A stretch of DNA of 64,000 bases from a virus (Duplodnaviria; Caudoviricetes), in IMG/VR virus record IMGVR_UViG_3300021364_000005. One strand, given 5' to 3'. Shown one piece after another: positions 3,153 to 47,034 of the stretch (position 1 is the first letter of the stretch; each line of letters begins with the position of its first letter). A program made the translations under genes and the position numbers. The notes below the pieces were generated by a model, which searched no databases, was not told the DNA's origin, and was given only the letters and a program-made list of their open reading frames with translations.

Positions 3153-4011
3153 AGTTTGTTAAGAAATTTATTGTTTCTTCAATGTTTAAGAATACTTGAT
3201 TCTCTCTGTACCTGTGTTCCATACCATTAATGATATAATCTATTTTCTCACAACCTTGATATTTTGGTACATATATTAATTCATCTTTCCAATTCTTTCC
3301 GTAAAAGATTGGTTTGATAAACAAGTCCCAATAGTTAATAACACTAATAGGTTCTTCTTCTAAGTAAGACAGCCCTTTCATTTGGTAATAGTCCCATGCA
3401 TTACAAAATGCTGTTACTGTGCCGTCTTGTAAAACACTAAGCAATATATGCTCGTCTTTTTCGAAACCCACTGCTGTACGGTCGTTACACAGCGTCTTGT
3501 GTGCCCTTAAACGTGCATACTCTACACTGTTTGCTGTTTCTAGCAGGTAGTGTTTTCCATTATGTACATAAGGATCTGGACCATTAAATCCTTCTACTAG
3601 TGTTGTATTTTTTGGAAGTTTATTTAAGAAAAATGCGTGTAGTATTTGATTAGGTGGGATTTGCAGATCTTCTGATGTAGCAATTATATCATCCTTCACT
3701 TCGTATGGATCTATCTTAATTATTGTTACATCTATATTAAACTTATCTACACAAGCCTTTACGTTTTCTAGTTCATTGTCATTGTAATTAGGAAGATGTA
3801 AAAACGCACAATCTATTTGAATGCCTGCATCTTGAAAAGCTAAAAGGGTTGCTTGACTATCCAACCCTCCGCTAAAACTTAAAATTAAATTATTGTAATT
3901 ATTTTTTATAAAGTTAGCCCGCTCAGTAAACTCCTGTCTAACAGAACCTACTGGGCGGGTAACTGGGTGCAAATCTATATAGAATTTGCCATCTTCAAAA
4001 CCGTATGACAT
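3109..4011 (-). CDS. PP-loop family protein, paralog 2
   Basis: LSFSGGLDSQ PP-loop; no QueC-type C-terminal Cys cluster. Confidence 0.65.
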   Translation of the reverse strand: MSYGFEDGKFYIDLHPVTRPVGSVRQEFTERANFIKNNYNNLILSFSGGLDSQATLLAFQDAGIQIDCAFLHLPNYNDNELENVKACVDKFNIDVTIIKIDPYEVKDDIIATSEDLQIPPNQILHAFFLNKLPKNTTLVEGFNGPDPYVHNGKHYLLETANSVEYARLRAHKTLCNDRTAVGFEKDEHILLSVLQDGTVTAFCNAWDYYQMKGLSYLEEEPISVINYWDLFIKPIFYGKNWKDELIYVPKYQGCEKIDYIINGMEHRYRENQVFLNIEETINFLTNSTEPKRYWQRSSYQ

Positions 4012-8417: not shown

Positions 8418-8423
8418 TAAATA
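8418..8423 (+). promoter_or_regulatory. T4-late-like TAAATA box
   Basis: ATAAATA-ctat-ATG(8428); no SD. Confidence 0.6.
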
Positions 8424-8427
8424 CTAT

Positions 8428-9630
8428 ATGTTAAAACACAAAGCACTTGGTTACTATGTTGTTAATGGCAAAACTTTTTCTAGTAAGATTGCTGCTTGTA
8501 TTTATGCAACGCAAAATCATGCAAGTATAAGATGGCATTTTAACAATGAAATATTTGATTATTATCCCTGGCACATAGAACCTGAAGAAAGTTTAGATGA
8601 ACTTTATTATCGTAGAGCTAGGCAACTGCGTGAGCAGTACGATTATATCTGTTTAGCATTTAGCGGAGGTGGTGATAGTAACAACATACTAGAAGCATTT
8701 TTGCGTCAAGGATTATTCATTGATGAAGTTGTAACAAACATCATGGATGATAAAAATAAACTTACTACCAATAATAGTTTACAGATTAGTAATTGGAACG
8801 AAGGTGCTGAGTATAAACTCCAAACTGTAGATAGACTTAAAGAACTACAAAGTCGATCTCCTAATACTAAAATAAGTGTTATTGATCTAAGTAAAGGATT
8901 GTTTGAAATATTTAATTCCTACGGAGATGCAGGTTGGATAGAAAAAACTAGAGAACGAATGAACCCTAGCGGATTTATGCGTCATAATTTTTTACACATG
9001 AAAGAAATACGTAAAAGATTTGATAAAGATAAAAAGATTTGTATGTTATTAGGAATCGAAAAACCTCGCACTTTTGTAAAAGATGGTATGTTTAAAATGG
9101 CTTTTAGCGATAAGGCTGTTAATATAGCTACAGTATCAGAGTTTATTGAAGACTACGACAATACAGAAGTAGAATATTTTTATTGGCATCCTGATGCTGC
9201 TGCAATAATTGCCAAGCAATGTCATGTTATAAAGCGTTGGTTAGAATTCAATCCTAGATTTTTAAAGTATTGGTTGCCTAAAGACACAGGCGAAATATGG
9301 AGTAACCATAGGAAGTATCACGAAAGGATACTTAGACCTTTGATATATAATTCAACATGGCATGAAACTTATTGGCAGGCAAATAAAAGTACTAAAGATT
9401 GGTATTCTGAAATTGACGACTGGTTTTGGAAGCAACACAGCGGAACAAAGGAACACGCTATATGGAGAGCCGGTTTAGATTATGTCAAAGAAAATGCAAA
9501 AGATTGGATGATGCCTGGTGACACCGAAGGTTTAAAAGGATTTTTGCATAGTTATGATATTGGAAAACTAAAAACTATTAATGCAGGTCAACCCACACAC
9601 CGTTCGCATATGCTTGGACTTTATTCGTAG
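8428..9630 (+). CDS. PP-loop family protein, paralog 4
   Basis: LAFSGGGDSNN; clear paralog of 4555..5739. Confidence 0.7.
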   Translation: MLKHKALGYYVVNGKTFSSKIAACIYATQNHASIRWHFNNEIFDYYPWHIEPEESLDELYYRRARQLREQYDYICLAFSGGGDSNNILEAFLRQGLFIDEVVTNIMDDKNKLTTNNSLQISNWNEGAEYKLQTVDRLKELQSRSPNTKISVIDLSKGLFEIFNSYGDAGWIEKTRERMNPSGFMRHNFLHMKEIRKRFDKDKKICMLLGIEKPRTFVKDGMFKMAFSDKAVNIATVSEFIEDYDNTEVEYFYWHPDAAAIIAKQCHVIKRWLEFNPRFLKYWLPKDTGEIWSNHRKYHERILRPLIYNSTWHETYWQANKSTKDWYSEIDDWFWKQHSGTKEHAIWRAGLDYVKENAKDWMMPGDTEGLKGFLHSYDIGKLKTINAGQPTHRSHMLGLYS

Positions 9631-35554: not shown

Positions 35555-35755
35555 TTAATCTATTTTATTTTGGCGTTCCCAGGCCTCTTCAAACTGTTCT
35601 GCATAGTCATATAAAGGAGCACCATTGGCACCGTCATACCAAAGGCGTTTGAAATATCCTTCTGCACTTGCTATTACTGTTTCAGGGGATGCATTGAGAT
35701 GACCTTTAACCATATAGAATAATCTGTATTCTTCTTTAAGGTCGTTCCTTAACAT
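35555..35755 (-). CDS. Small hypothetical protein
   Basis: 66 aa; TAAATA (35760-35765) 4 nt before the ATG. Confidence 0.6.
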   Translation of the reverse strand: MLRNDLKEEYRLFYMVKGHLNASPETVIASAEGYFKRLWYDGANGAPLYDYAEQFEEAWERQNKID

Positions 35756-35792
35756 ACTGTATTTACATTGTTACAGTATTATAACGCTAACA

Positions 35793-35945
35793 TTAGGCTT
35801 TTTTAGCCATATTTGTAGCAGTGCCGTATTTTACAGCTTCCCAGTCTTTACCATAACGTTTTTTGAATTCTTTGTCAGGGAGATCGTCTGCGTAATCGTC
35901 ACGCTTCTTAATTTCTTTTTTTGTAAGTTTACGTTCGCTTGTTAC
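35793..35945 (-). other. Unannotated 50-codon coding segment in the -1 frame of 35942..36862
   Basis: VTSERKLTKKEIKKRDDYADDLPDKEFKKRYGKDWEAVKYGTATNMAKKA-stop. It has no start or SD of its own and is reached via A-AAA-AAG at the upstream stop. Confidence 0.7.
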
Positions 35946-36862
35946 TTTTTTTTTGATTCTGCGAGTTTTGCATGAAGTGCCTTTTTATATGGATCGTTTG
36001 TTTCTTTTGTAACGATCTTAGGCTTTGCATTTGTTTCAGGCATAGCTGCTTCAGAAGCTTCTTCATAATCCATATGATGATATACGCTTCCTATATCATT
36101 AGCTGCTTTTGTAATTTTACTTTGAACCCATCCGTCGAGTCCTTCTGCTTCTGAAACACCTTTAAGCAAGTCGTGTAGCTTTATTGCGTATTTTGCAATT
36201 TTATATAGTTCTGCACGAGCCATTTGAACTTCATGATCTTGTTCAGCACGATGAGCGAGATCGCCTAAACCTTCATTAGTTTTTTTCTTACCTAAAATTT
36301 GGTCTTTAATTTTACCCTTTTCTTCTTCGCTTGCACCATCACGTCCTGCTTTTTGTAATTTTTCAAAGCCTTTTTTACCGTATTTTTTTATTCCGGTATA
36401 ACGCTGTAAACCGCTTTCTGTAGTATCTGTATCGCTCATATCACTTTCTCGCTTTATTGGTTTGTATGCTCTGCCATCTTTAAGGGCATCAATGTACATT
36501 TTAAATGCACTATTATTATTTATCTGTCCACCTTGCCAACCGCCTGGCATTTTCTTAACCCAACTTTGTCCTGCCCATTGCCACATAATACCTTTAGGAT
36601 CTTTAAACCCTGTGCCTGGAGGAATTTCTTTGACACTTTTTGGAATAGGTATATTAGGATCAACTTTTACAGGAGTTACAGGAATAGGTTTCCATTCTGC
36701 CTTTTTTGGTTGCGGTTTGTCGTCACCATATGTGTCAGGATCTAAAGCCTTATCAACAGCTCTGTTTAAAGCATCAGGGCTTTTTTTACCTGCTTGAAAT
36801 CCTTTAGCGAAACCTTTGGCTACACTTTTGAAAGGATTTTCATTTAGTTCTGACTTTCTCAT
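35942..36862 (-). CDS. Probable internal head protein (modular, Lys-rich)
   Basis: MRKSELNE N-terminus; TAAATA (36867-36872) 4 nt before the ATG. Confidence 0.65.
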   Translation of the reverse strand: MRKSELNENPFKSVAKGFAKGFQAGKKSPDALNRAVDKALDPDTYGDDKPQPKKAEWKPIPVTPVKVDPNIPIPKSVKEIPPGTGFKDPKGIMWQWAGQSWVKKMPGGWQGGQINNNSAFKMYIDALKDGRAYKPIKRESDMSDTDTTESGLQRYTGIKKYGKKGFEKLQKAGRDGASEEEKGKIKDQILGKKKTNEGLGDLAHRAEQDHEVQMARAELYKIAKYAIKLHDLLKGVSEAEGLDGWVQSKITKAANDIGSVYHHMDYEEASEAAMPETNAKPKIVTKETNDPYKKALHAKLAESKKK

Positions 36863-36869
36863 ACAGTAT

Positions 36870-37103
36870 TTATGCCTTCTTCTTTTTCTTTTTAGGATTC
36901 CGTGACTTCATATTTCCAATTGGCATTGCTACACTTGCAACACCGCCTGCTGCTGTTGTTTCCGAAACTGTAGGATCATTACAGTTGCAGTGCTTACAAG
37001 TTGGAGGACATTTGCAATCTTCGGCCTTTGTGTCTGCTCCGCAACATTTATCTGAGCAATATTTGTCCTTTTTTTCTTCAGCTAATAGTTCATTGATTTT
37101 CAT
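36870..37103 (-). CDS. Small Cys-rich probable head protein
   Basis: MKINELLAE, then YCSDKCC...CKCPPTCKHCNC; GGAGG SD; TAATG coupling. Confidence 0.65.
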   Translation of the reverse strand: MKINELLAEEKKDKYCSDKCCGADTKAEDCKCPPTCKHCNCNDPTVSETTAAGGVASVAMPIGNMKSRNPKKKKKKA

Positions 37104-37360
37104 TAAAAATCCTCCATGTTCCATCCAGTTTCTGGATCTAATCTTCGTAATTGTTTTTTATACTTTTTATATGTTTTCCAATATTCTTCACGTTCATTTG
37201 CTCTTGCCCGTCGAGCTTCGTGTTCTTTTAATTTGGCAACATAGTGTGCCCATTCAATATCATCTATACTGTTATCTTCGTGTTCTCTCCACGTTTTGCT
37301 ATACCCGTCTGGATATAGTTCTACTACTTTTTCTTCCCGCCCTTCATATTTGCGCACCAA
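37103..37360 (-). CDS. Hypothetical protein
   Basis: 85 aa in operon. Confidence 0.55.
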   Translation of the reverse strand: MVRKYEGREEKVVELYPDGYSKTWREHEDNSIDDIEWAHYVAKLKEHEARRARANEREEYWKTYKKYKKQLRRLDPETGWNMEDF

Positions 37361-38589
37361 TGATACATCCTCGCTTTCTCACCTGAGCTATTCTTAGCTC
37401 TCTTTCGTAAATCTGTAACACTACCGTTGCAACTAGCACCTGAACGTTTTACACGCCCTGGTCTGCTTTTGCCTTTTTTCTTACCGTCAGCAAAGTTTTC
37501 GCCTACTGCTTGTTTAATTGCTTTTGCTGTGCGTTCGAATTTATGGTCTTTGTACTTAAATCCTATACCGCCTGCAGATTCCCATGCATTTATGTTTACG
37601 CCGTAGTCGTCAATTAATATATTAGGAGTACCATTTTCGTTTTTTGCATATTGTGGTTTATTATGAGTTATGTATATATTTTTTGGAGGGAAGAAACTAA
37701 GATGCTTTTTGATCCATTGTTTCTTGTGTGGCTCTGATCTAGGGTCATCTGCTAATGGACTAGAACAAATATTATAACTGCCTTTAACTTGCTTTATTAA
37801 CATAAGCAATTCTTTAGCTTGAGGCAACATAGGCAGTTTCAACCAAAAATCATCTACAGTTTTAATTTTCTTTAAAGCAGCTTGTGGATCTTTAATATCT
37901 CTAAAATTTTTCTTACCTGCAACTTTTGCCCATTCTCCAAAAAAGTCTGCAAGCACTCCGTCCATATCGACGTAAATCTCTGTGCTTGGATCTAATTCGC
38001 CTAATGCTTCGGATAAGTCATAGGCAGCAAGCTCTTGCATTATTGCGCTCATTCTTTTTTGAGGACGTTGTGGAACTTCGTGTCCACCTTCCATTAGTGC
38101 TAGTTCATATGCGGAGTAATTTTCATGATATGCTTTATCAGTTGCTGTTTTTGCTTTTTCAGCATCAGGGTGTTTTGGATTAATAGTAACTACTTCGCCA
38201 TTAATTAGTTCTGCAACATTTGCACTTTTGCCAATTGTGTCTAATAGCTGATGTAAATCATCATTAGGATCATAGTTACCACTTTCATATCCTAACTTTC
38301 CTCTTACTTCTGTACGCCTACCTGTATCAGTATTAGTAATGTTAAGGACAAGCATTTCTTTATCTCTTTCAAGTTGTAATTTATACCCTTCTGCAAGTCC
38401 TAGATTAAAAAGAACATTTGTTGATTTGCCTTTTACTTTGCTACTCAGCGTAGGAGGCTTTCCGTCTTTATCTACTTTGTTTCCAAACTTAGCTGCTTCG
38501 ATAGAAGTTTGATTAACACCAACATCGTGTGTTGTATTAACACCTTTTACTATTCTTCCAACTGCTTCATCTAAATGTTCAATTTTCAT
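37324..38589 (-). CDS. Multidomain probable head protein carrying a 5'(3')-deoxyribonucleotidase (NT5C-like HAD) domain
   Basis: Start MKIEHLDE at 38589 (ATGA coupling); YVDMDGVLADF...K--W...LIDDY--N--AWE-AGG-G. Confidence 0.75.
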   Translation of the reverse strand: MKIEHLDEAVGRIVKGVNTTHDVGVNQTSIEAAKFGNKVDKDGKPPTLSSKVKGKSTNVLFNLGLAEGYKLQLERDKEMLVLNITNTDTGRRTEVRGKLGYESGNYDPNDDLHQLLDTIGKSANVAELINGEVVTINPKHPDAEKAKTATDKAYHENYSAYELALMEGGHEVPQRPQKRMSAIMQELAAYDLSEALGELDPSTEIYVDMDGVLADFFGEWAKVAGKKNFRDIKDPQAALKKIKTVDDFWLKLPMLPQAKELLMLIKQVKGSYNICSSPLADDPRSEPHKKQWIKKHLSFFPPKNIYITHNKPQYAKNENGTPNILIDDYGVNINAWESAGGIGFKYKDHKFERTAKAIKQAVGENFADGKKKGKSRPGRVKRSGASCNGSVTDLRKRAKNSSGEKARMYHWCANMKGGKKK

Positions 38590-38804
38590 TTTTTCTTGCG
38601 TCCCCTGAATTGAGGAACTCCTGTCATATATGGTTTTGAAAACCATAATTTGAACCAGTCTTTATCTCCTGGTTTTAAATTTAATCTTTTTTCTTTCTTT
38701 TTTAATTCAGCAGCTGTCTCGGAAGGGTTTTCGTCAATGTGATATTCTGAGTATCCTTTGAATTCATTTATACCTGCTAGTCTTTTTAAAGTATCTAAAT
38801 CCAT
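38586..38804 (-). CDS. Small probable head protein
   Basis: MDLDTLKRLAGINE; basic C-terminus. Confidence 0.6.
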   Translation of the reverse strand: MDLDTLKRLAGINEFKGYSEYHIDENPSETAAELKKKEKRLNLKPGDKDWFKLWFSKPYMTGVPQFRGRKKK

Positions 38805-46208: not shown

Positions 46209-47014
46209 TTGGACTGGTAACCAAAAATGTTTTCTAATTGTAGTAATTGCATTTCGGTTAACTTTGGCATCACAGTGTCTATTTTAATATACGCATTTCC
46301 ACGTTGTCTATTGTTAAGTGGTAACCCGTGTCCTGTTATACTTAATGTGGTTCCAGGTTTTGTGCCTCTTGGAATATTAACTTTTATATCACTGCCTTCT
46401 AACGATTTTACAAATATGTGTGTGCCTTTTAATAAACTAATTAATGGAATTGTTTCTTTAGCTTTTAAATGGGGACCATCAATGTTCCAATAATGATGTC
46501 TTATGTAATTTACTAGGACATTTAAATTGCCTCTAGGAAAATCAGATACTGCGTTATCTCCTAATCCTCTAAACTGAACAGTTTGACCGTTTTGGATGTA
46601 AGGGGGAATAGTAACCTCAGCCTCTTCTATACCTCTTGTTGTTTTATATCTTAGTCTTAAATTTTTTCCACTGAATACTTCTTCTAGACTAAGTTTTACT
46701 GGTATAGAAATATCCTTGTTTCTTGGTCCGTGTCTTTGTTGAAATCCTCCTCCGAACATATTGGAAAATATATCATTAAAATTTCCAAAATTATCACTAA
46801 AGGCATTTGAATTGAACTGTGCTTGTGGATTATCATACGCTGCTTTTTTTTGTGGATCTTTTAAAACATCGTATGCTTCGTTTATTTGTTTAAATTTGGT
46901 ATCGTCACCACCTGTACGATCAGGATGATGCTCCATAGCAAGTTTTCTATATGCTTGTTTTATTTCTTTGTCAGAGGCTGTTCTATTTACGCCAAGTACA
47001 CTATAATGGTCCAT
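46205..47014 (-). CDS. dnaJ: DnaJ-class J-domain co-chaperone (type II, CbpA-like)
   Basis: J domain with HPD, G/F region and C-terminal domain; no Zn finger. Confidence 0.92.
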   Translation of the reverse strand: MDHYSVLGVNRTASDKEIKQAYRKLAMEHHPDRTGGDDTKFKQINEAYDVLKDPQKKAAYDNPQAQFNSNAFSDNFGNFNDIFSNMFGGGFQQRHGPRNKDISIPVKLSLEEVFSGKNLRLRYKTTRGIEEAEVTIPPYIQNGQTVQFRGLGDNAVSDFPRGNLNVLVNYIRHHYWNIDGPHLKAKETIPLISLLKGTHIFVKSLEGSDIKVNIPRGTKPGTTLSITGHGLPLNNRQRGNAYIKIDTVMPKLTEMQLLQLENIFGYQSN

Positions 47015-47034
47015 ACTGTACTTAGCGTGTTATA

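Follow-up and report, generated by a model that had tools for sequence, protein, structure and literature searches.

Does a phage gene that stops directly after a run of nine adenines also give rise to a longer protein, and if so, by which route? The question is raised by a minus-strand junction in a 64,000-nucleotide stretch of viral DNA (Caudoviricetes; IMG/VR record IMGVR_UViG_3300021364_000005), the whole of which is called the window below. The ORF at 36862..35942 encodes P0001, a Lys-rich, multi-module protein of 306 aa whose short leader ends in Glu; the 3' end of the ORF reads TCA AAA AAA AAG TAA. This end contains a homopolymer of exactly nine A's (A9; 35946..35954), the proposed slippage site, and the heptamer A_AAA_AAG (35945..35951) in the shifty phase. 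The zero-frame stop codon TAA (35942..35944) stands directly after the heptamer and overlaps codons 1 and 2 of the -1 frame. The latter opens no farther upstream than 35984 and, if entered at 35945, runs through 50 sense codons to a TAA at 35795-35793. The extension thus defined, P0002 (35793..35945, minus strand), consists of a linker ending in Glu and a conserved two-helix module of approximately 46 residues. A previous interpretation made from the letters alone (the sequence-only reading) had described the terminal codons and the 50-codon -1 frame, and both were confirmed. Its statement that this frame fills the gap ahead of the next promoter without a start or Shine-Dalgarno sequence of its own also held: the module occupies the 186-nt gap before the next gene start at 35755, the open -1 frame contains no ATG, GTG, or TTG ahead of an internal Met near its end, and no Shine-Dalgarno-like sequence lies upstream of the A9 junction or the module in the window sequence. 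According to a frame check, A10 in place of A9 would read directly into the module.

Copies of one start-context motif, TAAATAC-W-GTATG, lie at either end of the two frames. The copy at 36860..36872 (minus strand) includes the ATG of P0001 and marks the start of the two-frame unit, and the copy at 35753..35765 (minus strand) belongs to the next gene, with its ATG at 35755, and forms the 3' bound. Four copies occur in the window (the other two at 8418-8430 and 47012-47024), compared to 0.46 expected, and all of them end on the ATG of a gene. No terminator-like site was found between the module stop and the next start-context motif. Because the frames share these bounds and no terminator separates them, both lie in one unit. 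The motif contains ATAAATA, which resembles a T4 late promoter, at a distance of just a few bases from the start codon. With this placement, leaders would be very short or absent, or the motif would be another kind of start signal.

The window is part of a large (jumbo) uncultured marine phage, and the exact P0001 protein is found on a 204-kb contig. Nearby genes code for a T4-type DNA polymerase, a clamp loader, a Lon-like protease, an endolysin, and fibre-like proteins, and the same gene cluster contains a nucleotidase-domain protein and a cytidylyltransferase-like protein. No tRNA genes were detected in the 64-kb window. The genes from 40760 to 35793 are assemblies of small modules, which recur in many orders in other phages. 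Neither P0001 nor P0002 has a match in Pfam or PHROG, and in the ESM Atlas P0001 leads to unnamed viral clusters only and to a poorly folded model. Full-length homologs of P0001 (58-67% identity) have the same end point or continue in frame into another module. Within this gene family, a short deletion inside the C-terminal module of L004 (approximately 3850-3880, compared to L006) breaks the frame and the rest continues in -1, which represents either a natural deletion or an assembly fault. The adjacent P0126 (36870-37103) is an eight-Cys module flanked by x-x-Glu sites. This module recurs in at least 35 viral contigs (L226-L260) as a fusion with a wide range of partners, one being the tail region of the P0001 gene family. 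An insertion of the P0001 gene between the halves of an older small gene was hinted at by two loci (L083 and L085). This reading was dropped in view of L228, where the upstream 84-aa gene has the same end without the P0001 gene.

The module in the -1 frame has relatives in 55 viral contigs, with up to 93% protein identity. Its subtype is in frame in all 32 of these contigs that were frame-checked, and it occurs in frame within varied proteins, also in Salicola phage SCTP-2. The copy in the window retains all ten invariant residues of the family, has no private amino-acid change, and differs from its nearest relatives by 16-22 synonymous and 5-7 non-synonymous substitutions. Where dN/dS was computable in these comparisons it ranged from 0.025 to 0.05, with synonymous sites near saturation. 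Since the module is 92-93% identical in protein to modules of other viral contigs and keeps the invariant residues, the -1 frame is open because it is coding and not by chance. AlphaFold, with an alignment as input, models the module as a helical hairpin (helices at residues 9-21 and 24-49; pLDDT 92.3), and a PDB fold search with this model gave no informative match. The sequence-only reading had regarded the extension as a Lys/Arg-rich DNA-binding tail, a view that found no support, as the module folds as a confident helical hairpin without a structural match. In cultured cyanophages the module is found in frame or as a stand-alone small gene. For example, a related module in Synechococcus virus S-PRM1 (L342, 1471-1656) is a separate gene of 61 aa; from its annotated start, this gene shares 4 bases with the end of a 670-aa gene. 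Thus, the related module can also be produced on its own.

How a frame without a start is translated becomes clearer from related loci. All 261 fetched loci (1.27 Mb) were scanned for A runs of nine or more. The scan revealed 14 distinct runs, every one of exactly nine bases: 11 were in frame inside long ORFs, one (L119) was outside any long ORF, and two, those of the window and of L220, were at frame breaks. In L220, an ORF that shares the central module of P0001 meets A9, and the -1 frame codes for a module of a sister subtype that has no start. A search with the L220 module gave 225 relatives, 80 of them listed as loci. In 23 of the 80 listed loci, an upstream ORF of 141-232 codons leads into exactly A9, a stop follows 1-9 codons later, and a startless module lies in the -1 frame. 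These 23 loci are each from a different metagenome and comprise at least 11 distinct junction sequences. Their upstream ORFs are of at least two kinds; those of L261, L271, and L340 carry the P0001 central module and thus belong to the gene family of the window, so that frame-broken lineages with an upstream gene of this family number four, counting the window. Five further loci of the 80 have A9 in frame at the equivalent junction, among them L275 (a 236-kb contig), where a homolog of a gene neighbouring P0001 in the window lies just upstream. The remaining junctions among the 80 are in frame and have runs of seven or fewer. Neither A8 nor A10 was found among the approximately 30 A-run junctions in the listed relatives, all of which are exactly A9. 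The run begins at codon position 1, 2, or 3, depending on the lineage, and each of these A9 junctions also holds an in-phase A_AAA_AAN heptamer. Both the in-frame and the out-of-frame junctions have nine A's, but their flanking bases differ. In L280 an in-frame A9 (approximately 90-100) is situated within the module itself and not at the junction.

Comparison of the frame-broken lineages with each other showed that their modules evolve as proteins. Between L292 and L301 there are 8 synonymous and 0 non-synonymous differences, between L292 and L316 there are 12 and 3, and between L277 and L289 there are 23 and 5; the pN/pS values of all pairs fall within 0.00-0.25. Such a pattern would not arise in an untranslated module, and therefore the out-of-frame module must be translated. 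As it has no start, it can be reached only by a slip at the run. This conservation across relatives provides the decisive evidence for a putative recoding signal, and it lends substance to the proposal of the sequence-only reading that a slip yields a short and a long isoform, because frame-broken relatives keep the run. The further expectation that homologs keep the broken frame together with a conserved slippery heptamer was borne out for the frame and the run; each A9 also holds a phased heptamer, but the codon phase of the run varies and nine bases instead of seven are kept. Moreover, the kept broken frame is seen in the sister subtype and in more distant members of the gene family and not in the exact pairing of the window.

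This pairing of a P0001 gene with the module subtype of the window was found only in near-identical strains. According to protein records, the exact 306-aa P0001 is present on four contigs from two sources, and two near-identical variants (one differing in one residue, the other of 93 aa with three differences) share the same stop. All six contigs of the window lineage are thus frame-broken by protein records, with the run length there being deduced from these. An in-frame form of 356 aa was absent from a 168-536 aa search of a collection of 5.8 billion protein clusters, and near-identical DNA was found neither in cultured phages nor in IMG/VR (searched with two junction patterns) nor in one metagenome scan. 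For the window itself, support for recoding therefore comes by analogy with the sister subtype and the more distant gene-family members.

Taken together, we consider it likely that the junction is a programmed one-base slippage site, most probably one where RNA polymerase adds an A, and we have good confidence that recoding at this junction of the window is functional. Under standard decoding, translation would stop just after A9 and yield the 306-aa short form. In a fraction of the products the reading frame would move back by one base at A9. The most likely cause would be that RNA polymerase adds one extra A on the run, so that A9 in the gene becomes A10 in the mRNA; a ribosomal -1 slip on A_AAA_AAG beside the stop codon would be a lesser or alternative route. 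Either way, the product would be the same 356-aa long form with the two-helix module at its C-terminus. Slippage of the two kinds, giving the same protein, cannot be distinguished by sequence. The data show the site, the intact module, the absence of another way to translate it, and the same design conserved in other phage lineages with purifying selection on the out-of-frame module. The identity of the slipping machine, the proportion of the two forms, and what the module does are inferred.

The composition of the genome bears on this point, albeit not in one direction. The A9 at 35946-35954 is the sole run of nine or more A's or T's in 64 kb, where shuffled sequences are expected to contain 7.9. 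However, A/T runs decay with length in the window (18 of length 7, three of length 8, one of length 9), and the single A9 is not far from what this decay predicts, which counts against a special status. In the window genes, none of 13 Lys-Lys-Lys triplets is coded by AAA AAA AAA, compared to 5.5 expected from the 75% usage of AAA, and the positions of AAG in such triplets break up long A runs, a pattern suggesting that this phage is under selection to avoid runs prone to slippage. The heptamer AAAAAAG, on the other hand, is not avoided (49 copies in the window, 38 expected). Because of these 49 copies, and because another one lies in phase within the P0001 gene itself (36701-36707), the heptamer motif by itself is weak evidence.

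The foremost competing explanation is a purely ribosomal programmed -1 frameshift on A_AAA_AAG, aided by the adjacent stop codon and without any part played by RNA polymerase. The heptamer is in the correct phase with the stop directly after it, an in-phase A_AAA_AAN is present at every A9 junction of the relatives, and A_AAA_AAG is among the best motifs in Escherichia coli when stimulated (PMC4066793). The stimulators, however, are missing. That the window has neither an upstream SD-like element nor a strong stem downstream, as already noted from the sequence, was confirmed, for the stem by folding: the RNA downstream of A9 gave z-scores of 0.71 and -0.64, with no stable structure in the window, and an alignment of 11 junctions yielded a consensus structure with zero predicted base pairs. 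Unstimulated heptamers in E. coli exceed a background of 0.055% no more than 2-10 fold (Sharma et al., 2014; PMC4066793) and thus stay well under 1%. In addition, a heptamer needs seven bases, but nine are conserved, and in every codon phase; and in the window the heptamer is tolerated in 49 copies whereas A9 is avoided. The ribosomal mechanism on which the sequence-only reading had relied is hence weakened, for it is the length of the run that is conserved, in any codon phase, and a stimulator is lacking. Conservation of run length instead of phase and the missing stimulator make slippage by RNA polymerase at least as likely as ribosomal slippage. The occurrence of A9 in all phases, the lack of RNA structure, and the avoidance of long A runs favour transcriptional over purely ribosomal slippage. 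On balance, we lean slightly toward a functional recoding that is mainly transcriptional; one that is mainly ribosomal appears unlikely, and we judge a purely ribosomal frameshift similarly. Ribosomal slippage may nevertheless contribute beside the transcriptional kind.

Systems of both kinds are available for comparison. Programmed transcriptional slippage of this type occurs in Shigella mxiE, alongside Thermus dnaX and tssM1. Runs of nine A's or T's provoke efficient slippage by bacterial RNA polymerase in vivo, and Thermus thermophilus dnaX yields its tau and gamma subunits through such slippage at a nine-base run (Atkins et al., 2016; PMC5009743). The window junction shares with this gene a run of exactly nine A/T in a coding region, no need of an RNA stimulator, and two products from one gene that differ at the C-terminus. 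The Thermus layout, in which the long form is in frame and the slipped form is short, is matched by the in-frame A9 relatives L262, L267, and L275, whereas the window has the reverse layout and its long form would need the slip. Thermus dnaX codes for a replicase subunit, and the window gene for a phage accessory protein with slippage read from sequence. In Citrobacter rodentium tssM1 an A run lies just before the stop, and slippage reaches an efficiency of 20-25% (Gueguen et al., 2014; PMC4256274). Here, as in Yersinia tssM3, an A run is followed by a stop, and added A's restore the frame and append a C-terminal domain; the short form of TssM1 is in the majority and the long form in the minority (20-25%). 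Related genes of tssM1 and tssM3 show both orientations, as do the relatives of the window. However, tssM1 is a bacterial secretion gene with eleven A's and the window design has nine A's in phage genes. Unlike the run in tssM1, the A9 of the window recurs ahead of a single shuffled module, and the upstream genes that precede it are of at least two kinds.

On the ribosomal side, E. coli dnaX and the IS3/IS911 elements share both the heptamer and its phase with the window, as well as a functional extension in the -1 frame, but they need an upstream SD-like element and/or a downstream hairpin or pseudoknot, none of which is present or conserved here. The tail chaperone G/GT of phage lambda is a ribosomal frameshift of a phage, as summarised in PMC4256274. 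Like the putative site of the window, it is conserved among phages and sets the proportion of a short to a C-terminally extended protein. It differs in being ribosomal, in using another motif, and in residing in a tail assembly gene that is syntenic across long-tailed phages. The slippery run in the window, unlike that of G/GT, accompanies a small module that is shuffled among genes. A narrow literature search found no annotated or published example of the A9-plus-module design. The A9 design is, as far as slippage can be deduced from the letters, a further presumptive case of a known kind of recoding.

An explanation without recoding is that the frame was broken recently and without selection, by loss of one base or by a recombination scar at the poly-Lys junction, and that the module, silent except for occasional slippage, would decay. 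The exact pairing of gene and module is, after all, known only from near-identical strains, the P0001 gene family often ends naturally at this point, and a frame-breaking deletion has been seen in the same family (L004). Even the absence of private non-synonymous changes would still be compatible with silent drift up to approximately 3% divergence. However, a mutational hot spot predicts A8 and A10 alleles and a minority of broken copies, but the approximately 30 A-run junctions of the relatives are all exactly A9, and six of six contigs of the lineage are broken. Furthermore, the module is under purifying selection in the 23 frame-broken relatives. A recent break is thus rather improbable.

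Even less probable is that the nine A's are an assembly or sequencing error for a true A10, or a phase-variation tract that differs among virions. Homopolymers are error-prone on some sequencing platforms. Yet four contigs from two sources and two variants share the stop, no fused form turned up in the length range searched, and a miscount cannot explain why A9 occurs at both in-frame and out-of-frame junctions whose flanking bases differ. Phase variation is at odds with the lack of length variation among the protein records of the lineage and the relative junctions. The sequence-only reading had named a one-base error or phase variation in A9 as its alternative, which we regard as very unlikely given the same stop across the lineage contigs and the absence of A8 and A10 in the relatives. 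Translation of the module alone from a non-standard start, for which the stand-alone 61-aa gene with its own start in S-PRM1 offers a precedent, or by readthrough of the stop has a negligible chance of being correct, because the open part of the -1 frame contains neither ATG, GTG, or TTG nor a Shine-Dalgarno sequence and readthrough would remain in the zero frame while the module lies in -1. An alternative genetic code was rejected from the sequence itself.

A second junction of similar appearance was examined in the same cluster. The gene at 38646..37324 (minus strand) ends in Lys-Lys-Lys-stop on G_AAA_AAG, and a -1 frame ORF follows to 37103. The layout of this junction (37324-37378 in the window) is kept in eight viral loci (L218-L225). 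The motif GAGGA-N7-TTG inside the gene upstream of 37324 is also kept, within a stretch of approximately 29 bases that shows no variation, synonymous sites included. Owing to this conserved start, the junction was rejected as a twin frameshift, and the ORF is most likely an overlapping gene with a start of its own. Since the ORF most likely starts by itself, it offers no support for a frameshift design across the cluster.

What the slippage would serve depends on the function of P0001, which the sequence-only reading took for a head protein. A role as a head or capsid-internal protein is plausible, as judged from a T4-like leader pattern and the junctions ending in Glu, which form the only basis of this assignment. 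By pattern match, the N-termini of the window cluster genes and of the relatives' upstream ORFs fit a leader of about 10 residues that ends in hydrophobic-x-Glu, and x-x-Glu precedes the module in all 17 lineages examined. Hydrophobic-x-Glu motifs are the sites of the T4 prohead protease, and the modules in the window are bounded by sites that fit this pattern. The gene cluster also resembles the T4 internal proteins in a short N-terminal leader ending in Glu and in a highly variable set of genes. We know of no recoding in the T4 internal-protein genes. The T4 internal proteins carry a capsid targeting sequence (Rao and Black, 2010; PMC3012670). T4 IPI-III, however, have no sequence homology to the window proteins, for which packaging and cleavage are only putative. 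A relation to known internal proteins was indicated neither by a PHROG or Pfam match nor by a named Atlas cluster or a PDB fold match. As a guess, the module might be a peptide packaged in the capsid: the leader-bearing protein might carry it into the head, where a cut at the Glu just before the module might release it.

To our knowledge, few recoding sites other than those of the tail chaperone genes are conserved in a large number of uncultured phages. The A9 site occurs in large marine phages of an abundant group and is linked to a small module that is found shuffled from one gene to another. A simple sequence rule describes it, namely A9 followed by a startless conserved module. Current gene callers miss this design and report a truncated protein and an empty gap. 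The in-frame and out-of-frame A9 alleles represent a clean set for separating transcriptional from ribosomal slippage. Tentatively, A9 and the two-helix module might constitute a portable "slip-on" cassette that operates behind different leader-bearing phage genes. If this were true, the frequency of slippage would set the amount of the module and perhaps the capsid load of a protease-released peptide, and a change from in-frame to out-of-frame A9, or back, would reverse the balance of long and short forms while keeping both. Should the long form be confirmed, the junction would be a natural system in which phages use slippage to dose an accessory, possibly packaged, peptide.
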